From: Bryobacteraceae bacterium
GTDB taxonomy: Bacteria > Acidobacteriota > Terriglobia > Bryobacterales > Bryobacteraceae
Length of the DNA stretch: 28,287 bases
Assembly (NCBI GenBank): GCA_030036985.1
Contig: JASHSD010000109.1
Coordinates: 1-28,287, forward strand
Direction of reading: 5' to 3'
The position numbers were made by a program, and so were the translations under genes. The notes under the pieces were generated by a model. That model was not told where the DNA came from, did no database searches, and saw only the letters and a list, made by a program, of their open reading frames with translations. Position 1 is the first letter of the stretch; each line of letters starts with the position of its first letter. Shown here one piece after another: positions 2,888-14,388 of this stretch.

Positions 2888-3126
2888 AAACCATTCATTT
2901 TACATCAGTTATTGGCAGTCTGCCGGAGTTACCCAGAGTTATGCAGACATTGGACTTGCAGCGTCCGGTGCCCTAGCTGAGTTTTGATCAGATCCGACGA
3001 TTTCGGCGGAGTTCGCACACTACCCGCACACAGCCCGGCACGGCCGTATTTGCCGCATCTGGTCTAACCCCGGGCCGTCGCGAAGTTCGTTTGATGAGAT
3101 TGTTCAACGCGGGTTATAAATCTGGT

Positions 3127-3369
3127 ATGTCCTCTCCCGGCGCCAGTTCATTTTCGTCTGAAGGCAGCACTCGTCTACGGCTTCTTAACGTAAAAGAGGT
3201 AGCCAAGAGACTCGACCTATCGCTCCCGAGGGTTTACGAACTGGCCCGCGGTGGCATCCTTCCAGTTGTACGGCTCGGGAGACAGATTCGCGTGGACGAA
3301 GGCCGCCTGATCGCGTGGATCAATGACGGCGGAAGGGCGTTGCCGGGCGGCTGGAGGCGCGACCCCTGA
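3127..3369 (+). CDS. Excisionase / HTH_17-type small DNA-binding protein
   Basis: 80 aa from ATG 3127 (start uncertain; ORF opens at 3091). LLNVKEVAKRLDLSLPRVYELARGGILPVVRLGRQIRV is the typical xis/MerR-like wHTH pattern, ~240 bp inside the att fragment. Confidence 0.8.
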   Translation: MSSPGASSFSSEGSTRLRLLNVKEVAKRLDLSLPRVYELARGGILPVVRLGRQIRVDEGRLIAWINDGGRALPGGWRRDP

Positions 3370-5484: not shown

Positions 5485-5628
5485 GGTATTCCCGATGCGA
5501 AACCTGAAAATGATCGGGCGACCCGCGACCGGACTCACCCGCACTGACTGCGCCCCAGGCCAGCGTGCACGCGACTTCTCGCAACAGCGGCGAGAGCGCT
5601 GCAAGAGAGTGTGCGCTCCGAAGCGACT

Positions 5629-5656: not shown

Positions 5657-5673
5657 TTGAACGAGGTGTATCT

Positions 5674-6345
5674 ATGGCACTAATCATTCCATTGACGCAG
5701 TGCGCCTCTGGCTCTGAGCCCAACACGGACAATGAAGCCCTGAAGGAAAAGCGCCGCAAAATTAAGGAAGCGCTGCTGAACAACCAGCAGATCAAGGTGA
5801 CACCTCAGGGGAATTTGGCGACCAACCCCCAGGATACTGGAATCGTCGTGCCGGAAGGGAAGCTGGCTTCGTTTTACTGGTATGAAGCTGATCCTGACCT
5901 TTATCGCGCCGAGATGGAGGCGATGCGAAGGTACTTTCCCACGTTCCGGCTCGACAAGGAGTCCGACGGACGGTTGTCTTGGGTCGGTCCAGTGACGCCG
6001 GGACTGATAGGAAGGCATCCGAGAACCTATACACTCCAAGCTGTGTACGACCATTCGCATCCTTCGAATGATACCTACGGAGGTTCCGTGAAGGTATACT
6101 CGGTCGATCCCGACCTGGAGGAAGTGGCGGACGGCGAGAGAATACCGCATACGCTCCGGGACAGCGAAAACGAACTTTATATTTGCACGGCGCGAAAAGA
6201 GGATGTCAGGGCGGGAACAAGCGCTGGTAGTACGGTCACAACGGCCGCGGTTGCAATTAGCTGGGCAGTAAAGTGGCTATCCGTCTTCGAGCTTTGGTTG
6301 AATGACGAGGTTTCTGACGAAGAGTTTCAGGGGCATGCATTCTGA
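5674..6345 (+). CDS. Prokaryotic E2 (ubiquitin-conjugating fold)-like protein with ~65 aa N-terminal extension
   Basis: Start reassigned to ATG 5674 (GAGGTG RBS), 223 aa. E2-like succession: helix (LYRAEMEAMRRYFP), strands (LSWVG, YTLQAVY), HP turn, then IPH(159)...LYIC(171), matching HPN...GxICL with a putative catalytic Cys171 (6184-6186). JAB and E1 genes follow. Confidence 0.72.
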   Translation: MALIIPLTQCASGSEPNTDNEALKEKRRKIKEALLNNQQIKVTPQGNLATNPQDTGIVVPEGKLASFYWYEADPDLYRAEMEAMRRYFPTFRLDKESDGRLSWVGPVTPGLIGRHPRTYTLQAVYDHSHPSNDTYGGSVKVYSVDPDLEEVADGERIPHTLRDSENELYICTARKEDVRAGTSAGSTVTTAAVAISWAVKWLSVFELWLNDEVSDEEFQGHAF

Positions 6346-6351
6346 GGGACT

Positions 6352-7305
6352 ATGTTCTCAAGCCCCGCCATTTATCTCAGCGATCGATCCTACACGGACA
6401 TCCTGAATGAGACCTCCCAGCACCTCGACACGGAAACCGGTGGCGTGCTGATCGGGGAATGTCGGCAAAACAAGTGGTTCGTCGTCGAGTCGATTGATCC
6501 GGGGCCGAAAGCGGTTCTCCAGCACTCTTATTTTGAGTACGACCAAGCCTACGTCAATCACCTTTCCAACAAGGTGCGACGACGTTACGCGGCGCCCCTC
6601 AGGCTGCTGGGGCTTTGGCACCGGCATCCAGGTAGCTTCGATCGGTTCTCGGGGACGGACGACGGAACGCACCGCCGATACATTCAGCAATGCAACGGAG
6701 TCATCATCTCGGGATTGGTGAACATCGACCCGACGTTTCGCTTCACTTTTTATTTTGTTGACGGCGAGCCACCTCACCACCAGAGGACCGACTACGCTGT
6801 CGGTGACCAGCATTTCCCGCCCGATCTTCTGCGGACCCTCGATGAGCGGACGCTTATTGGCAGGGTGAACGGATCTTCTGATCTGCCACATAGACCAGTC
6901 CAGGAACTGCAGATCATCGACAAGCGCCCGGCATCTTCCGCACTGATGGAACACATTGTGAATCCGATCAGGGATTTGTTTGGCGTTCAAACTCAAACAA
7001 CCGCTGTCGATGCGAGGGAGATGCCCCAAGCAGTCGTTGATGGCGTTGCGAACGTGGCTCTGGAAATGCTCGACGAGGAGCTCGCGTATCTCGACTCGCA
7101 GCGGGATTTTGAATACGAACTAGAGATGTCCCCACGCGGCGTGCTACTAACGATGCAGAAGCTTTCTGGCTTTAGGGGCGCTGGACAAGGCGTGAGATTC
7201 TTATTTACGGTCGAGGATCAGCAGCGCATCGTCAGGTACGGAACCCACTCATATGCGTTTCGCAAGGGAATTGTCGAAGAAGTCATTGGGCAGATGTTTT
7301 ACTGA
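6352..7305 (+). CDS. JAB/MPN+ (JAMM) metalloprotease with C-terminal extension
   Basis: Complete JAMM motif: E28 (ETGGVLIG) and H90-x-H92-x7-S100-x2-D103 (LGLWHRHPGSFDRFSGTDD). About 170 extra C-terminal residues are unassigned. Confidence 0.9.
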   Translation: MFSSPAIYLSDRSYTDILNETSQHLDTETGGVLIGECRQNKWFVVESIDPGPKAVLQHSYFEYDQAYVNHLSNKVRRRYAAPLRLLGLWHRHPGSFDRFSGTDDGTHRRYIQQCNGVIISGLVNIDPTFRFTFYFVDGEPPHHQRTDYAVGDQHFPPDLLRTLDERTLIGRVNGSSDLPHRPVQELQIIDKRPASSALMEHIVNPIRDLFGVQTQTTAVDAREMPQAVVDGVANVALEMLDEELAYLDSQRDFEYELEMSPRGVLLTMQKLSGFRGAGQGVRFLFTVEDQQRIVRYGTHSYAFRKGIVEEVIGQMFY

Positions 7306-7320
7306 CGGTGAAGCACTCTT

Positions 7321-8469
7321 GTGGCCAAAGATCGTGGGTATAAGGTCCTCCTTCCTGTCGAAATCGTCAACGGCCGCGTAACCGGGCCGCTTTACGGCTA
7401 CCACCATCCTGAAACCGGGGTGTTCAACGTAACCTCGTGCGGGGAGCTGTCTCCTCTTGAAACAGGTCGCCCGTGCGCGAGGCTCGGCACGCTCTCTGAC
7501 GCTTCCTCTGTGGCCGCTGGGGAGGGCGAAGGCCTGATTGGCCGCTACATTGACAACAAACCCGTCTTCACCTGCAGCGGGCAAGATTGCGAACTTCATT
7601 ATTACGCTCTGGTCCAAGATGTATTCTCCCGTAACCATGGAATCCTGGAAACCAGCGCCCTGCTTCACGCCAGGGCAGTAATCTCCGGCTGCGGCTCAGT
7701 CGGCAGCCAGGTGGCTTTGGATCTCGCGAGGTCGGGCGTGGGAAACTTTTTCCTGATCGATAACGATCAGCTCGCCTACCACAATCTATGCCGGCATCAG
7801 TGCGGGATCAGCGACGTGGGGCGGCTGAAAGTGGATGCCGTCAGGGACCGCATCCTGGAAATCAATCGAAATGCAAAGGTGCGGGTGGCACCCACCATCA
7901 TCGAGCGCATCGCCAAGGACGTGTGGGAAGCATGGCTCGACCATGACACTGTGATCGTCGGTTGCGCTGACAACCGCGAGGCGGACGTCTACGCGAACCG
8001 TCTTTCGCAACTGTACATGGCGCCCTTCGTGTCGATCGGTTTGTGGGAACGGGCCTTCGCCGGGGAGCTGTTCTGGAGCATTCCGGGAGAGACGCCTTGC
8101 TATTACTGCGCGTTCGGCGCAAAGACCAACAACCTGTCTTTCAGGCCCTCCCAAAACCGGAGAGTCTATACGACGGAAGAGGACCTGGGCAAACTGACCT
8201 TCGAGCCCGGCATAGCCGTTGATATCGGGTTCGTGACGAATATCGGCATCAAGATCGCGCTCGACCTGCTCGGCAGGGGCAGGCGTCCGATGCGTCTTCT
8301 TGACGACATCAAGCAATTCACGCTGGTCTGCAATACGACCAACGTCCAGGTCGCCGGAGACCTGCAGGAGATTTTCGACCATGCGCTGCAGGTGACGAGA
8401 TCCATCGACGTGGAAAAACATGAAGAGTGCCCGCACTGCCGCGTGGCCGGAAAAGGGCGTGAAGCATGA
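7321..8469 (+). CDS. E1-like ThiF/MoeB-family adenylyltransferase
   Basis: GTG start, 382 aa. GCGSVG nucleotide-binding loop, LIDND..HNLCRH, GRLKVDAV, GCADN, and Zn-binding C260xxC263 / C370xxC373. About 100 aa N-terminal extra domain. Confidence 0.92.
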   Translation: MAKDRGYKVLLPVEIVNGRVTGPLYGYHHPETGVFNVTSCGELSPLETGRPCARLGTLSDASSVAAGEGEGLIGRYIDNKPVFTCSGQDCELHYYALVQDVFSRNHGILETSALLHARAVISGCGSVGSQVALDLARSGVGNFFLIDNDQLAYHNLCRHQCGISDVGRLKVDAVRDRILEINRNAKVRVAPTIIERIAKDVWEAWLDHDTVIVGCADNREADVYANRLSQLYMAPFVSIGLWERAFAGELFWSIPGETPCYYCAFGAKTNNLSFRPSQNRRVYTTEEDLGKLTFEPGIAVDIGFVTNIGIKIALDLLGRGRRPMRLLDDIKQFTLVCNTTNVQVAGDLQEIFDHALQVTRSIDVEKHEECPHCRVAGKGREA

Positions 8470-11400
8470 GCAACGGGGGCAGCATGAACGCCGCGCATGA
8501 TCGGCGCGAGACGGAGTTGTGCGGCATCGCTCTTCTCGGGCAGCATTACTCGACTTTTTGCCAGAATCCCGCGAGGGTCAGGCGGGAAATTCTCTTCTTC
8601 ATCGACCATCGCTGGCGTCTGGCCGAGGATGAAAGGCAATGGTGCGCCGGCCTGCTGTCCGAAGATGACGGCGAGGCGCGCGATGGTGTCGGCCTTGTTC
8701 GGCAAATGGGCAGTGTTCTCGCGCCGGAGGACCTTACCGGACTGGCCCAGTGCCTGGGCTGGTTTGACGCAGGCGATGGAGCCATGCAGTCTTTGCTGCG
8801 CGATCTACTCGCCGGAGCACAGTCTCCGGTCGCGCACGGGGAACTTTTTCCTGAGCCGGTGTTGACGGCTTTTGGAGTGCTGGGCACCGATCCGACGCTG
8901 GACGCGGACGCGGTGAACCAGATCTATAAGCAGAAGATGAAGGTCCTGCATCCGGATGCCCGTGTCGGCGTCGAACTCAACGCGCGCGAGAGCGCTGAGG
9001 CGGATTCAGTCGTGAGACGGCTGACTGACGCGCGAGAGACGATCAGAGCGCATTTCGAGACAATGAGCCGCGCGTCATCCGGCCCGACCGGCCGGCCGCC
9101 GCCGGCGGAGCCAATGGAAGACGACAAGACGTGGAATCTCACGGCGCGCACGCGCGAACTCGGGCAAAGGGTCCAACAAACAATTGAAGCGGCCCACGAG
9201 ATCATTAGGGAAACCGATCAGCGAATAGAAAACGCCCGCAACAAGCGGCAGGCAGACATAGCGGCTATAAACAATCTGGCGGCGCCCCCCCGGCAGGAGG
9301 CCGAGCACCTTTTGAGCAATGCACGCGCGCATCTGACGGCACAGGGCGCCGAAGTGGCGGTGCTCCATCGACCGGATTATCGCGGGGCGGGGCCAGCCGG
9401 AACGGATCTGCGCGACGCGCGCGCGGCCATATCCAGCCTGAAATCGCTCGTTGAGGATCAAGTTCTCAAGGCTTCGAAGCCCAAGCAGGCGTGGCGTCCC
9501 AACAGTGACGGAGGCGGCTGCGCAATGGTGATCGTCGCGATTTTTGCGGGCGCGATCGGCGCCAATCTTGCCGGCAACTTCCTGGGTTTCCTCGCCGGTT
9601 TTGCCGCCGTCTGCGGCGGCGTCATGTGGTGGCTTCACCACGATCCTGTTTCACGGCTGCGGTCCGTGTCTTCGGACGTCGAAGGGCGCGGGTATCAGGC
9701 GCTCGCCATCATCGACCAGTACACAAGAGAAACCACCGCCCGGGCGGACGCGGAACTTCAATCGGCGGAGCAGCGATTTCGCAGTGAAATCGCCCAACTC
9801 GACCGGTCCTTGCAGGGCCAGGCGGCGGAGCTTCAGCGTGAGATTGCATCCCTTTGGGCGGATGCGCGGTTTTCATGCGCGGAGTGGAACGCGGCTGACT
9901 GGGACAAGTGGCGTCCCTCGTCGGCTCCGGCGTTCGCGGCCCGTTTTGCCACGCTGACCGCTGAAACCGCCGACCTCGGCCGTCGCCTGACAGCAAATTT
10001 GAGCTTCGTCGTTCCAGCCCTGGCGCCTTTCCCGGAAGGGCGCGCCCTTCTGCTCAAGGTCTCGGGGGCCGCGAAGGACGGCGCGGCGAAGGCCATCCAG
10101 TCCGCGCTGGCCCGCCTGCTGGCGACGATCCCGCCCGCGAAGCTGCGCTTCACATTCATCGACCCCATCGCGCTCGGAAGCAATGTCGCGGCCTTCATGC
10201 CCTTGGCCGACCACGAAGAGTCGCTCGTTACCAGCCGTGCCTGGAGCGAGCCGCATCACATCGAGCAGCGCCTCGGCGATTTGACCGAGCACATGGAAAC
10301 GGTCATCCAGAAGTATCTGCGCACCGAGTTCAAATCGATCCATGACTACAACGAGGCCGCCAAGGAAGTCGCGGAGCCGTACCGGTTCGTCGTCGTGTTC
10401 GATTTTCCGGTCAACTTCACCGACACGGCGGCCCGTCGCCTGATCAGCATCGCGCGGAATGGCGCGCGCTGCGGCGTTTATTGTCTGGTCGTATGCGACA
10501 GCGGCAAGCCGCTGCCGTACGGATTTTCCCTCGATGAATTGCGACGATCATCCAGCGTCATTGAGGCCCCCACCGGCAAGCCTGAGACCGAACTAAGCTG
10601 GGCGGACCCGGACTTCCAATCCTGGCGCCTACAGCTTGACGCGGGCGCGCCGCGTGCGATCTTGGCGCGTGTCATCGGCGCGGTCGGCGGGCTCGCGAAG
10701 GACGCCATGCGCGTAGAAGTGCCGTACAGCAAGCTGCTCTCGCTTGCACAACTGGGCAACGGGAACTGGTGGAAAGCGACGACTGCAAAATCGATTCGCG
10801 TGCCCCTCGGCCCGACGGGCGCGCGCAAGCTGCAATATCTCGTGCTGGGTGAGGGCATGGGCCATCATGCGCTGATTGTGGGCCGGCCCGGTTCGGGGAA
10901 AAGCAACCTGATGCATGTCATCATCACCACACTGGCGTTAACCTACCCGCCGGAGGAGATCAGGCTATACCTGATCGACTTCAAGAAAGGCGTCGAATTC
11001 AAGTGCTACGCCGACTTTAAGCTGCCGCACGCGGAGGCGATCGCCATCGAGAGCGAGCGCGAATTCGGGCTGAGCGTGGTCGAGCGTCTCGACGTTGAAC
11101 TGAAGCGGCGCGGCGACCTTTTCCGCGGCGCGGGATCGGCCAATATCACCGAGTACCGGGAGAAGACAGGGCAGCAGATTCCCCGCGTCCTGCTGCTGGT
11201 CGATGAGTTCCAGGAATTCTTCACGCAGGACGATCAGGTCGCGCGTCAGACCACGCTGATCCTCGACCGCCTGGTGCGGCAAGGACGCGCTTTCGGCATT
11301 CACGTCATACTGGGATCGCAGACGCTGGCGGGCAGCTACAATCTTTCCCGCAGCACGCTCGACCAGATGGCCGTGCGCATCGCCATGCAGTGCAGCGAGG

Positions 11401-12473
11401 CCGATTCACGGCTGATCTTGTCGGACGACAATCCGGCGGCACGGTTGTTGTCGCGGCCGGGCGAGGCGATCTACAACGCGGCGAGCGGCCTGGTCGAGGG
11501 AAACAACCTGTTTCAAGTGGCGCGGTTTTCCGAGGAGGACGGCGCCGAGTGCCTAGCGCTCGTCGGGCGGATCGCGCGCGATTCGGGCAGGAGGGTCGGC
11601 GTGCCCATTGTTTTTGAGGGCAACGAACTTGCGCATATGGTCGATTGCCGGAAGCTGCGGGATCTCCTCGGCGCGGCCGACTGGCCGGAGCGGCGGAGCG
11701 TCGAACTGCTGCTCGGCGATCCGATCGCGATCAAGGATCCCGTGGCCGTGCGCCTTCTACGGCAAAGCGGGAGCCATCTCCTCATCCTGTCACGCGACGA
11801 AGCGGAGGGCGTGGGCATGTGCGTTGCGTCCGTCGCCAGTATCCTGCTCCAGCAGCGGCCCGGGGATGCGCAGGTCTTCATTGCCGATTTCACGCTGGCG
11901 GACAGCGAATGGGCCGAGCGCGCCGAGGATATCGAGAAGCATTTCCCGCACCAGATCAAGGTGCTGAGCCGCCAGCGCGAAGTCGCCGACGCCGTCAAGA
12001 CCATCGCCGAGGAGGTCAGGCGCCGGGGCGACCCGCCTCCGGAGCGTTCCAGCATCTATCTCGTCATTCAGGGAATGCACCGCGTGCGGGTGTTGCGGGG
12101 CGACGACGAGTCGTTCGCTTACGAGGATGACCGCTCGACCCCGGCCGAACATTTCGCGGCGATATTGCGCGACGGCCCCGAGGTCGGGATACATGTGATC
12201 GCCTGGTGCGATACGTACGCGAACGCTGGGCGCGTCGCCGACCGCCGGATGATTACGCAGTTCGGCCTGCGAGCGGGCGGCGCGATGAGCGCGGACGATT
12301 CGATGAATTTCTTCGATGACGCGGCAGCCTCACGCATCGACAAACCGCATCGCATCATCTTCTTCGAAGAGGAGCGACCGGGCCAATTGGAGAAGTTCCG
12401 CCCTTATTCAATGCCACCGCGCGATTGGCTGGAAGAGGTCGGGGGACGGCTCCGCGCGCGGACGGCTTCTTGA
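8466..12473 (+). CDS. EccC/EssC-like FtsK/SpoIIIE ATPase with N-terminal helical + DnaJ (HPD) domain and two TM helices
   Basis: 1335 aa, ATGA overlap with the E1 stop. J-domain YKQKMKVLHPD (HPD 8949-8957), coiled coils, TM hairpin (~9520-9635). One intact ATPase (Walker A GRPGSGKS 10881-10904; Walker B LLLVDEFQ; GRAFGIHVILGSQ) is flanked by two degenerate FtsK-like repeats. Confidence 0.9.
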   Translation: MSNGGSMNAAHDRRETELCGIALLGQHYSTFCQNPARVRREILFFIDHRWRLAEDERQWCAGLLSEDDGEARDGVGLVRQMGSVLAPEDLTGLAQCLGWFDAGDGAMQSLLRDLLAGAQSPVAHGELFPEPVLTAFGVLGTDPTLDADAVNQIYKQKMKVLHPDARVGVELNARESAEADSVVRRLTDARETIRAHFETMSRASSGPTGRPPPAEPMEDDKTWNLTARTRELGQRVQQTIEAAHEIIRETDQRIENARNKRQADIAAINNLAAPPRQEAEHLLSNARAHLTAQGAEVAVLHRPDYRGAGPAGTDLRDARAAISSLKSLVEDQVLKASKPKQAWRPNSDGGGCAMVIVAIFAGAIGANLAGNFLGFLAGFAAVCGGVMWWLHHDPVSRLRSVSSDVEGRGYQALAIIDQYTRETTARADAELQSAEQRFRSEIAQLDRSLQGQAAELQREIASLWADARFSCAEWNAADWDKWRPSSAPAFAARFATLTAETADLGRRLTANLSFVVPALAPFPEGRALLLKVSGAAKDGAAKAIQSALARLLATIPPAKLRFTFIDPIALGSNVAAFMPLADHEESLVTSRAWSEPHHIEQRLGDLTEHMETVIQKYLRTEFKSIHDYNEAAKEVAEPYRFVVVFDFPVNFTDTAARRLISIARNGARCGVYCLVVCDSGKPLPYGFSLDELRRSSSVIEAPTGKPETELSWADPDFQSWRLQLDAGAPRAILARVIGAVGGLAKDAMRVEVPYSKLLSLAQLGNGNWWKATTAKSIRVPLGPTGARKLQYLVLGEGMGHHALIVGRPGSGKSNLMHVIITTLALTYPPEEIRLYLIDFKKGVEFKCYADFKLPHAEAIAIESEREFGLSVVERLDVELKRRGDLFRGAGSANITEYREKTGQQIPRVLLLVDEFQEFFTQDDQVARQTTLILDRLVRQGRAFGIHVILGSQTLAGSYNLSRSTLDQMAVRIAMQCSEADSRLILSDDNPAARLLSRPGEAIYNAASGLVEGNNLFQVARFSEEDGAECLALVGRIARDSGRRVGVPIVFEGNELAHMVDCRKLRDLLGAADWPERRSVELLLGDPIAIKDPVAVRLLRQSGSHLLILSRDEAEGVGMCVASVASILLQQRPGDAQVFIADFTLADSEWAERAEDIEKHFPHQIKVLSRQREVADAVKTIAEEVRRRGDPPPERSSIYLVIQGMHRVRVLRGDDESFAYEDDRSTPAEHFAAILRDGPEVGIHVIAWCDTYANAGRVADRRMITQFGLRAGGAMSADDSMNFFDDAAASRIDKPHRIIFFEEERPGQLEKFRPYSMPPRDWLEEVGGRLRARTAS

Positions 12474-12492: not shown

Positions 12493-12777
12493 ATGCCTCA
12501 ATCCGATATTCATGTTGACCCTGACCGCCTGTTGGCCATCGCCGAGGAACTGAGCATGTTTTCGGGCGACATCAGGACCGAGTTAACCGTGCTTGACGGC
12601 GAGCTTGCCCGGCTGGGGCGCAGCTGGCAGGACGAGGAATACACGAAGTTCAAGCGTGCGATTCAGCCGCTGCGACGGGTTCTGGACGAATTCCAGCAGG
12701 AAATCGCGCGCAGCAAGCCGGACATGTTAGCCGACGCCGAGGCGATTCGTGTCTACCAAAGACTTAAGACCCCCTAA
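12493..12777 (+). CDS. WXG100/ESAT-6-like protein
   Basis: 94 aa helix-turn-helix pattern with central SW45QD..Y..F and an N-terminal VDPDRL motif; directly downstream of the FtsK ATPase. Confidence 0.8.
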   Translation: MPQSDIHVDPDRLLAIAEELSMFSGDIRTELTVLDGELARLGRSWQDEEYTKFKRAIQPLRRVLDEFQQEIARSKPDMLADAEAIRVYQRLKTP

Positions 12778-12782
12778 AAGCC

Positions 12783-13055
12783 ATGCCATCCGCCATCGTC
12801 ACACCAGCTGAACTCGTCGCCTTCGCGCGGCATCTTTCAAAGACCGCGGATAGCGTCGCCAAGCGCCGCAACAAGGCCGCCCGGCTCGTCGGCGATGCTC
12901 GAAGCGTCTGGAAGGACGCCAAGTACGACCGTTTCCGCAAGACGTTCGATCAGACCGTCAAGGACCTGGACCGGTTCGTCAGGCTTGCGGAGGACTACGC
13001 CCAGTTCCTGGAACGCAAGGCCGGACTGGCGCGCAAGTATCTTGACAACCGGTGA
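12783..13055 (+). CDS. WXG100/ESAT-6-like protein
   Basis: 90 aa; N-terminal VTPAELVAFA and central VW43KD..Y..F; tandem partner of the previous gene. Confidence 0.8.
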   Translation: MPSAIVTPAELVAFARHLSKTADSVAKRRNKAARLVGDARSVWKDAKYDRFRKTFDQTVKDLDRFVRLAEDYAQFLERKAGLARKYLDNR

Positions 13056-14035
13056 CGACGGTGCGAGACAGCGCCAAAGTCCGGAGCGAAGCCATCGCCG
13101 CGTTCGAGACGGCGCTTGGACGGTTTGCTGCCGCCGCTCTTGAACGCGCCAAGGCGGCGGAGACGACGCTGCGGCGGACGACGGGCCAGCTTGAGGAACG
13201 CCGGGCCGCTTTGCGCCGCGAAATGTCGCGTCTGCGCGACGAAATCGAGAACGCCGAAGAGGATGACGAGATAAGCCACGCGCGGCGGCAATACGAAGAC
13301 GCGGAGGAAGCGCTGTCAAACCTCGTCAGGTGGCAGCGGAATGTCGAGGCAACCGCCGCTTCCTATCAACGTGAAGCGGCCAAGCTGCAGGATCTGGGCA
13401 CCGGCATGACCGCCGAGGCGCGCGCAGCTCTGCGACGGGTCCTTGAAAACCTGGGGGCTTACTTCGCCTTACAAAAAGACGGGGCCGTGATCGGCCGTAC
13501 CGGCGGGGCTCTCGCTGCGGACCGCGCGGGACCCGAAGCGGACGGCGATCCGCGCCGCATTCGCGCCGTGGCGTCCGTCCTCCTGTCCCTGCTGGCCTTA
13601 AGGCGGGAAGCCTGGGACAACGCGGCTTCGCCCAATGCCAGGCTGGAGGCTCTGCAGGAAGCCGAAAACCGCATCGCGGATGTGACGGGGCGCCCGGCGC
13701 TGCCGGTGTTGCCGGCGGCGCTTGAGGCGCAAGAATACGGCGTATGCGACGGCGAGACAATCTGGATAAACGATGAGCACCTCGGACCCGGAAGCAGTCG
13801 CGAGATGATCAGAACGATCGTCCACGAAGGGCGTCATGCGTATCAATATTACGTTTGCGCTAACGCGGCGGCGCATGGCGATGCTGCCGAAGTCGAGGCC
13901 TGGCGGACGAATCTCTGCCAGTATGTGGAGTGGAAAGAGAATCCTGCGCGGTACGCGAGCCAGCCGGTTGAGGCCGACGCTTTTGCCTGCGAGGACGCGG
14001 TGATGGAGGTTTACTTGAACGAGGGAGGTGACTAG
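13052..14035 (+). CDS. Helical-hairpin (WXG/LXG-like) N-terminus fused to a zincin metallopeptidase-like domain; candidate effector
   Basis: GTG start with GTGA overlap, 327 aa. About 140 aa of coiled coil, then IWIN...TIVH258EGRH262AYQY and a downstream QPVEADA (third ligand Glu). Confidence 0.75.
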   Translation: MTTVRDSAKVRSEAIAAFETALGRFAAAALERAKAAETTLRRTTGQLEERRAALRREMSRLRDEIENAEEDDEISHARRQYEDAEEALSNLVRWQRNVEATAASYQREAAKLQDLGTGMTAEARAALRRVLENLGAYFALQKDGAVIGRTGGALAADRAGPEADGDPRRIRAVASVLLSLLALRREAWDNAASPNARLEALQEAENRIADVTGRPALPVLPAALEAQEYGVCDGETIWINDEHLGPGSSREMIRTIVHEGRHAYQYYVCANAAAHGDAAEVEAWRTNLCQYVEWKENPARYASQPVEADAFACEDAVMEVYLNEGGD

Positions 14036-14388
14036 TGGAAACCGGGAATTCGACGGGCCGACGCCTTGATCCAGTCGTGATAGCGGCTCGGCTTGTTGAG
14101 GAGTTCGGCTATTCGCCCGCCAGCGCCGAAATCACAGCGCTTGACCTGACCAACTGTTCTTCAAAGGTATGGGATGAGTTCAGCCGCTGGTGGCAAACAG
14201 GCGCGCTTGGCCCGCCGGAGGTCGAGGGGTTCTCGGCGGCGCAGCTGGTCCGCGATCACTCCCTCCTTCCGCCGGCCGCCTTTCTGATGCTCGACTGGCT
14301 CTTGAGAGACCCATCCGCCGCCAAGGCAGCGCTCGCGCGCGGATATGACTCGGTGGGTCATGGGCCCGCCGGGAGGAGGGCGCGGTGA
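14035..14388 (+). CDS. Small helical hypothetical protein; candidate immunity/inhibitor of the upstream peptidase
   Basis: 117 aa, GTG start overlapping the upstream TAG by 1 nt, with a GGAGG RBS. The function is inferred from position only. Confidence 0.6.
   Translation: METGNSTGRRLDPVVIAARLVEEFGYSPASAEITALDLTNCSSKVWDEFSRWWQTGALGPPEVEGFSAAQLVRDHSLLPPAAFLMLDWLLRDPSAAKAALARGYDSVGHGPAGRRAR

Follow-up and report, generated by a model that had tools for sequence, protein, structure and literature searches.

A conserved Ala-ended leader as a putative self-encoded tag in a bacterial E2-JAB-E1 operon

Introduction

What would a set of ubiquitin-type enzymes conjugate when no free ubiquitin-like protein is encoded beside it? 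The question is raised by an operon in a 28,287-nucleotide stretch of DNA (hereafter the window; contig JASHSD010000109.1 of assembly GCA_030036985.1, forward strand) from a Bryobacteraceae bacterium of the Acidobacteriota. The operon is tightly packed on the + strand and its first gene, placed at 5674-6345 from the open reading frames (ORFs) and their translation, encodes a 223-residue protein in which an E2 core is preceded by a leader of 65 residues; genes for a JAB/JAMM metallopeptidase and a ThiF-type E1 come next. An earlier note on this DNA had described the leader as ending ...IVVPEGKLA ahead of a core beginning SFYWYE and had proposed it as a built-in modifier. The translation of 5674-6345 agrees exactly with that description, residues 1-65 (bases 5674-5868) ending ...GIVVPEGKLA and SFYWYE standing next. 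It was also correct that no operon gene encodes a small protein ending in Gly-Gly: the small downstream genes are of the WXG100 family, and the operon genes include no modifier candidate besides the leader. The ATG at 5674 is taken as the start because the homologues begin at the same methionine and a GAGG (5664-5667) precedes it, and an upstream GTG at 5611 was ruled out on the same grounds.

The leader is, with little doubt, an autonomous module with a functional C-terminal alanine. Because it is conserved, and because in other genomes it stands alone as a gene with its stop directly after that alanine, it is most likely a new tag that does not have the ubiquitin fold. As judged from sequence comparison, the gene as a whole would probably, though with considerable room for doubt, encode a tag-E2 polyprotein, from which the JAB releases the leader for activation by the E1 and delivery to targets via Cys171 of the E2.

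Conservation and anatomy of the leader

A homologue search in 5.8 billion proteins returned 91 homologues, down to ~42% identity. Gly62 and Ala65 are invariant and Pro60, Lys63 and Leu64 at least 90% conserved, both in the 63 full-length homologues and in a set of 92 units; Arg27, Leu34 and Gly46 are likewise at least 90% conserved in the full-length homologues. Alignment of the PEGKLA junction had been suggested in the earlier note, and in the 63 homologues the PxGKLA junction proved to be conserved as strongly as Cys171 and as the catalytic residues generally. Conservation of the leader persists down to 45% identity, far above chance.

The unit, which is defined by its conservation, by free-standing genes elsewhere and by structural models, falls into four parts. 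At the N-terminus there is a short cap, in which the tail motif (I/V)x(I/V)PxGxLA recurs in weaker form; the unit continues with an acidic turn, a basic helix (amphipathic in the window, residues 19-35, 5728-5778, from AlphaFold and conservation), a short hydrophobic stretch and a variable polar loop, and it ends in the tail (I/V)xVPxGKLA, directly after which the E2 core (SFYWYE) begins. In the window the tail is GIVVPEGKLA (residues 56-65, 5839-5868), and both conservation and natural stop codons point to a JAB cleavage site predicted after Ala65. The cap is degenerate in the window's own clade (residues 3-11, LIIPLTQCA, 5680-5706). Its Pro6 is at least 90% conserved among the 92 units, some free-standing units have no cap, and it may be a second JAB site.

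Searches for relatives of the leader outside the family gave little. Pfam yielded no match to it and no WXG or LXG features, a comparison of the family's sequence profile with the PDB produced nothing meaningful, and the best score (0.84) in an ESM Atlas look-up of a free-standing tag was to an unrelated eukaryotic cluster.

Free-standing units and the natural break at the alanine

The distribution of fused and separate units was examined in 61 species-representative genomes carrying the E2, which were scanned with hidden Markov models (HMMs) made from our own alignments; a strong E2 match was obtained in 60. The unit is fused to the E2 in 40 of the 60 genomes, as a single unit in 24, as two units in 15 and as three in one. 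Elsewhere it is a separate gene, which stops exactly after the alanine in 12 genomes (L034, L035, L039, L042, L043, L044, L046, L049, L067, L069, L072 and L077), one or two residues past it in four, and in two genomes continues after it into a Cys-rich extension that would need trimming; in the last two genomes no unit was found. A leader that was poorly conserved or absent in homologues, which the earlier note had said would speak against a modifier, was thus not what emerged, the unit being present in 58 of the 60 species genomes.

In the split architecture a gene of 55-70 residues ending GK(L/H)A-stop is followed by a leaderless E2 that begins M(A)SFYWYE, and then by the JAB and the E1 (e.g. 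L001 and L015). A Humimicrobiaceae metagenome-assembled genome (MAG) has an E2 starting MASFYWYE with a 69-residue gene, ending ...VPEGKHA-stop, 24 nt upstream; a Planctomicrobium genome has a 70-residue gene ending ...VPQGKLAT-stop; and on two metagenome contigs the E2 is preceded by genes of 66 and 55 residues, both ending ...GKLA-stop. A phylogenetic tree of the E2 core implies about ten changes between the fused and the split state, at least three of which are forced by well-supported branches, and therefore the same peptide bond has repeatedly been the breakpoint.

When a leader profile was run more widely, against 1.84 billion representatives, 229 clusters reached E <= 0.001, and 153 proteins were analysed (the best 150 of the 229 clusters together with earlier short hits). 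The unit or units run into an E2 core in 42 of them, end exactly at ...GKLA in 34 and end within three residues of the alanine in 16; a further 31 run into other sequence (zinc ribbons, DnaJ-type CxxCxGxG fingers and fragments) and 30 are partial or truncated.

Several less usual arrangements were encountered. In P0101, P0139, P0214 and P0248, and in the gene upstream of the E2 in L048 and L051, ...GKLA is directly followed by sequence that is not E2, namely a DnaJ-type CxxCxGxG zinc finger, a zinc ribbon or a region of ~365 residues, and such proteins recall the ubiquitin-ribosomal-protein fusions. Five proteins of 141-275 residues (P0189, P0196, P0209, P0220 and P0237) have an N-terminal domain ahead of a tag that forms their last 55 residues and ends ...KLA; the N-terminal domain may be cargo carried on the tag. 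The giant protein P0111, of 4633 residues, matches the profile's tail half eight times. Natural fusions of the tag to an E1 or a JAB were not found in these searches. The termite-gut Treponema loci L003-L005 were rejected as clean splits and were not counted as evidence. In them the reading frame of the tag shifts after LVVPP and runs into the E2 out of frame, the remnant of another tag follows downstream, the E1 gene is placed upstream, no JAB was seen nearby and a Cas2 gene adjoins; each is probably a decaying copy and was treated as such.

Tandem units

Two units occur in 10 of the 91 first-round homologues and in many Bacteroidota genomes, and some proteins have three, as P0107 and P0108 of the library do. 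In at least six cases the units within a protein are 90-100% identical, whereas the mean between proteins is 45%. Tandem near-identical units are the pattern of polyubiquitin genes, and it requires a peptidase that separates the head-to-tail units.

The earlier proposal of a built-in modifier is supported in that it passes every comparative test available, and the natural gene splits at the proposed cleavage site and the tandem repeats are evidence beyond the checks that it had named.

Predicted fold of the tag

The earlier note had left the fold of residues 1-65 between a divergent beta-grasp and a Pup-like form. Two AlphaFold runs were made. In the model of the whole protein (63 sequences) residues 1-16 and 39-66 have a predicted local distance difference test score (pLDDT) below 50 and a helix at 21-35 is the only structure in the leader; in that of the leader alone (92 sequences) pLDDT is 59.7, the predicted template modelling score (pTM) is 0.24 and the only helix is at 19-35. 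Neither run supported the beta-grasp reading, which was rejected, and the Pup-like alternative stood. The tag is inferred to be a disordered chain with one helix, the disorder being read from low model confidence, and with one helix in a disordered chain and no beta-grasp it is therefore Pup-like in form.

A disordered chain with a single helix is also typical of inhibitory or docking peptides, which brings in the main rival explanation. According to this the leader is never conjugated and acts as a non-covalent regulator, either a pro-peptide or pseudo-substrate that holds the E2, the E1 or the JAB off for as long as it is attached, or an adaptor that blocks an active site with its tail or links the enzymes to the effector module. 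The tail motif recurs in the conserved cap, as though two sites needed filling, and tag and E2 pairs exist without E1 or JAB (see below), both of which such a regulator would accommodate. It has no evident need, however, for an exact chain end, yet 34 clusters and 12 of the 60 genomes stop right after the invariant alanine; it leaves the near-identical tandem copies unexplained, and it leaves a complete, catalytically intact E1-E2-JAB set without a substrate. A regulatory or pseudo-substrate peptide is accordingly considered unlikely, if still the strongest competitor of a conjugated tag.

The E2, JAB and E1

The E2 core (UBC fold) occupies residues 66-223 (5869-6345), with Cys171 encoded at 6184-6186 and an HPxN-like motif at residues 129-132. 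It is identified as an E2 because the CBASS-type E2 models of PADLOC match the 223-residue protein (E = 3.7e-13), because PF26395 ('E2-CBASS') is listed for it and for nearly all homologues by precomputed annotation, and because its best fold match in the PDB is 8yjy_B, the CdnG-bound E2 of Serratia (probability 1.0). A local Pfam scan gave no match to the protein even at E = 10, and an NCBIfam scan of the E2 assigned no family. Residues 66-223 form a UBC-like domain in the AlphaFold model, and Cys171 is invariant in the 63 homologues.

The JAB/JAMM metallopeptidase (317 residues, 6352-7305, +) was recognised by Pfam Prok-JAB and the PADLOC JAB models. Its Glu28, His90, His92, Ser100 and Asp103 are 98-100% conserved in 64 homologues, and it is predicted to be both the processing and the deconjugating enzyme. 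A C-terminal region of ~180 residues has no assigned family; in the window, hhalign relates this region (residues ~135-317) at best weakly to the first half of the E2 core (P = 0.002, probability 14%). The JAB protein of loci from Bacteroidota and Methanosarcina (L067:9419-10633, L054, L058-L062, L070, L079 and L080) has a second, E2-core-like C-terminal domain with HMM scores of 19-90, and some transmembrane neighbours carry such a domain too.

The ThiF-type E1 (382 residues, 7321-8469, +; Pfam ThiF, 7.8e-30, and PADLOC E1-E2 models) has an extra N-terminal domain of ~100 residues that is without an assigned family. Across 64 E1 sequences the glycine-rich loop for nucleotide binding and the Arg/Asp motifs are conserved. 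The crossover loop, between the zinc-site Cys pair and the EPG motif, has no Cys column, a Cys occurring in just two sequences at one position, and it contains Tyr283 (codon 8167-8169), which is 100% conserved. All three enzymes keep their catalytic residues and, on that showing, look active.

An E1 without a crossover-loop cysteine would also suit a different explanation, in which the unit is a precursor peptide whose C-terminus is modified by the E1 (as a peptidyl-adenylate or thiocarboxylate) and is never transferred to proteins, the product being exported or used by the FtsK-like ATPase encoded downstream or by another module. The E1-like MccB makes a peptidyl-adenylate on the microcin C precursor, and ThiS and MoaD are thiocarboxylate sulfur carriers, so members of the E1 family are known to have small peptides and ThiS/MoaD as substrates with no E2 taking part, and the unit is small with a fixed C-terminus. 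The chemistry of MccB needs a C-terminal Asn, however, and the loci read showed no genes for a rhodanese, a sulfurtransferase or cofactor synthesis. Almost everywhere, moreover, the unit has beside it an E2 whose cysteine is invariant, usually as a fusion, which is sensible only if the activated carboxylate is handed on, and the precursor-peptide explanation is thought improbable.

Distribution of the cassette and its neighbours

The unit and the JAB are each present in 58 of the 60 loci and the E1 in 57; the unit is thus an obligate part of the cassette, and it is this genomic linkage that supports its proposed activation by the E1 and carriage on the E2. Carriers were found in Acidobacteriota, Bacteroidota, Cyanobacteria, Planctomycetota, Firmicutes, Actinobacteriota, Spirochaetota, Campylobacterota, Chloroflexota, Thiomargarita and a Methanosarcina, that is in about ten bacterial phyla and one Methanosarcina, and they include gut Bacteroidota and Firmicutes and picocyanobacteria. 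Among the cultured carriers are Prolixibacter bellariivorans ATCC BAA-1284, Olsenella uli, Bacteroides congonensis, Dysgonomonas and Synechococcus. The tag and the E2-JAB-E1 triad are constant and the neighbouring genes vary. In one locus five DUF805 membrane proteins accompany the cassette, and in another there are MORN-repeat and unknown genes on an island with integrases and a primase-polymerase. The cassette is found on mobile islands, and its patchy distribution and swappable effectors suggest an undescribed family of conflict or defence systems.

The window's own neighbours are those of a type VII-like module. The E1 gene is followed by an FtsK/SpoIIIE (EssC/EccC-like) ATPase of 1335 residues (8466-12473, +; Pfam and NCBIfam), the N-terminal region of which weakly matches a DnaJ J domain, and by two WXG100-family genes (12493-12777 and 12783-13055, +; Pfam WXG100, E = 2.8e-7 and 2.4e-7 for the pair). 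Next comes a coupled pair on the same strand (13052-14388, from the ORFs), a 327-residue helical coiled-coil protein with a zincin-like HExxH motif, HEGRH (13052-14035), and a 117-residue gene that overlaps it by one base. A weak SprT-like match is the sole Pfam family match for this pair, and the two proteins look like a candidate cargo toxin and immunity pair of the type VII-like module. Upstream of the cassette there is a small helix-turn-helix, excisionase-like ORF at 3091-3369, and ARAGORN found no intact tRNA in the whole window; the cassette may be part of an integrated element.

In 23 of the 60 loci the same strand carries an FtsK-like gene, downstream in Acidobacteriota, Firmicutes and Actinobacteriota and upstream in most Bacteroidota, and in the window the WXG100 genes stand alongside it. 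The ATPase often accompanies the cassette and may be its effector or its target. The same association could be read as placing the unit in the type VII-like half of the operon and not in the conjugation half, as a secretion signal or co-secreted substrate of the EssC-like ATPase. The substrates of type VII systems are small helical proteins recognised via their C-terminal tails (PMC11217815). In the other 37 loci, however, the unit stands with the E2, JAB and E1 and there is no FtsK-like gene, other accessories such as the DUF805 membrane or MORN-repeat proteins being found there; it is the E2, not the ATPase, that the unit accompanies, and the leader has neither WXG or LXG features nor a Pfam match. 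A role in secretion alone is rated the least probable of the alternatives, marginally below the precursor peptide.

Proposed mechanism and points against it

A conjugated tag released from a polyprotein would work as follows. The product of 5674-6345 would be a polyprotein made of a peptide tag of ~53 residues with a short N-terminal cap, followed by the tag's own E2. The adjacent JAB would cut after Ala65, and possibly after the cap too, to give the freed tag and an E2 core with SFYWYE at its N-terminus. The adjacent ThiF-type E1 would then adenylate the Ala65 carboxylate, and the tag might be passed through an ester on the invariant Tyr283 of the crossover loop, as in BubCD, before it is transferred to Cys171 of the E2 as a thioester. 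By analogy with BubCD, a Tyr283 oxyester handing the tag to a cysteine E2 would be a mixed oxyester-thioester relay of a kind not described before. The E2 would finally move the tag onto an amino group of a target, a step that the JAB could reverse. Candidate targets are the variable downstream module, here the EssC-like ATPase, the WXG100 proteins and the helical HExxH protein, or the proteins of invading elements.

A number of observations weigh against this scheme. The C-terminal residue is Ala and not Gly, and one split form (L009) ends ...GELR. The conserved N-terminal cap, as a second copy of the tail motif, is not accounted for by the tag model. With no beta-grasp, and with a pLDDT of 59.7 for the leader alone, recognition by the E1 must rest on the tail and the helix, which to our knowledge is unprecedented for a free modifier, though known for CD-NTase tails. 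The family-less N-terminal domain of the E1 and C-terminal region of the JAB could change the picture. There are tag and E2 pairs with neither JAB nor E1 in the contig (L013:5140-5911 and L024), which may be E1-independent, like E2-only CBASS, or remnants. The earlier note had also allowed for a separate ubiquitin-like protein (Ubl) gene serving this E1; no further copy of the unit was found in the remainder of the genome, which is 88% complete, and no Gly-Gly protein lies next to the cassette, but the genome is a fragmented MAG, so a Ubl could be encoded elsewhere.

As a separate observation on L013 and L024, the free tag of these pairs ends ...GKLA or ...GKLASF and the N-terminus of the E2 keeps a vestigial tail-like motif.

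Comparison with known systems

The idea of a Ubl-E2 polyprotein is not new. The Aravind group predicted Ubl-E2 fusions that a JAB would release (PMC7159879), and a JAB-cut Ubl-E2 polyprotein was shown for BubAB of Type I Bub (PMC11601596, PMC11601603), from which it is already known. The window resembles Type I Bub (6E.1) in that one polypeptide carries the modifier, putative here, ahead of the modifier's own E2, that the operon includes a JAB/JAMM peptidase available to expose the reactive C-terminus, and that the E1 crossover loop lacks Cys but has an invariant Tyr (Tyr283 here, Y370 in BubCD); Tyr370 of BubCD forms a Ubl-tyrosine oxyester (PMC11601596). The differences are substantial. BubA consists of one to three beta-grasp domains with a Gly end, whereas the tag here is a predicted disordered peptide of ~53 residues with an Ala end; BubB has a catalytic Ser (plus His and Asp), whereas the E2 here has the invariant Cys171; and JAB and E1 are fused in BubCD but are separate genes here (6352-7305 and 7321-8469). 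No match to the DUF6527/BubE serine protease was found among the ten operon proteins scanned against Pfam. By sequence the window enzymes are closest to the CBASS-type E2, JAB and E1 models of PADLOC.

In Type II CBASS (cyclic-oligonucleotide-based antiphage signalling system) Cap2 activates a C-terminal tail that lies outside any beta-grasp protein (PMC11601603), and here too the activated C-terminus would belong to a molecule that is not a beta-grasp. The E2 core is listed in the E2-CBASS family by the precomputed annotation (PF26395), though not by the local Pfam scan, and has its best fold match there (8yjy), and the JAB and the E1 score best against Cap3- and Cap2-type models. Unlike Cap2, which is an E2-E1 fusion, the E1 and E2 here are separate, although both score against Cap2-type models, and what is activated would be a dedicated small peptide and not a signalling enzyme. 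No CD-NTase or nucleotide-activated effector was found among the ten operon proteins with Pfam, or among the E2, JAB, E1 and ATPase with PADLOC and NCBIfam.

Pup of Actinobacteria is of similar size to the tag, disordered (as the tag is in the AlphaFold models), helical and with a defined C-terminal residue. It is intrinsically disordered with helical propensity, has a defined reactive residue at a C-terminus that reads GGQ or GGE, and is ligated via a side-chain carboxylate by the glutamine-synthetase-like PafA after deamidation by Dop, without E1 or E2. The tag has no sequence similarity to Pup, ends GKLA and is linked to E1, E2 and JAB. Pfam scans found no PafA/Dop-like family among the operon proteins, the rest of the genome not having been searched for PafA.

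The order tag, E2, JAB, E1 matches the Bil listing of BilA (Ubl), BilB (E2), BilC (JAB) and E1, and the tandem near-identical head-to-tail units, in need of a peptidase, are like those of polyubiquitin genes. BilA and ubiquitin are, however, beta-grasp proteins with a Gly end, and BilD has a catalytic cysteine where the E1 crossover loop here has none. A C-terminal Gly or Gly-Gly is common to the beta-grasp modifiers (ubiquitin, ThiS, MoaD, SAMP, BilA and BubA), and in its place the tag has the invariant Ala65 after G-K-L.

A small protein of the ubiquitin world beside an EssC-like ATPase and WXG100 genes is also found in type VII secretion, as YukD/EsaB/TsxB (PMC11217815). YukD-type proteins are folded beta-grasps that are not conjugated and have no E1, E2 or JAB (PMC11217815), whereas the tag is unrelated to them in sequence and predicted structure. 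In surveying variant type VII systems, Garrett, Higginson and Palmer list YukD-like ubiquitin-fold proteins only, and no E1, E2 or JAB (PMC11217815). No literature was found on this tag, or on an E1/E2/JAB set joined to a type VII-like module, in a search that covered subscription journals thinly. What differs from the known kind is the putative tag, which is short, predicted to be disordered and Ala-ended, the CBASS-type E2 that keeps its cysteine, the encoding of JAB and E1 by separate genes and the frequent link to a type VII-like ATPase.

Significance

It is tentatively suggested, at slightly less than an even chance, that this is the first E1-E2-JAB conjugation system with a modifier that is not a beta-grasp, a disordered Ala-ended peptide of ~50 residues made as a poly-tag-E2, which in the window and in ~40% of loci would be wired to a type VII-like export ATPase and would gate export or toxin delivery. 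If true, trypsin would leave a diagnostic Leu-Ala remnant on tagged lysines, and the cultured carriers allow direct testing. A Pup-style disordered tag would then be joined to ubiquitin-style enzymes. The ubiquitin beta-grasp fold is shared by all free modifiers that we know to undergo E1 activation and transfer to an E2, and a short, disordered, Ala-ended tag on the same enzymes would mean that E1-E2 chemistry is independent of that fold.

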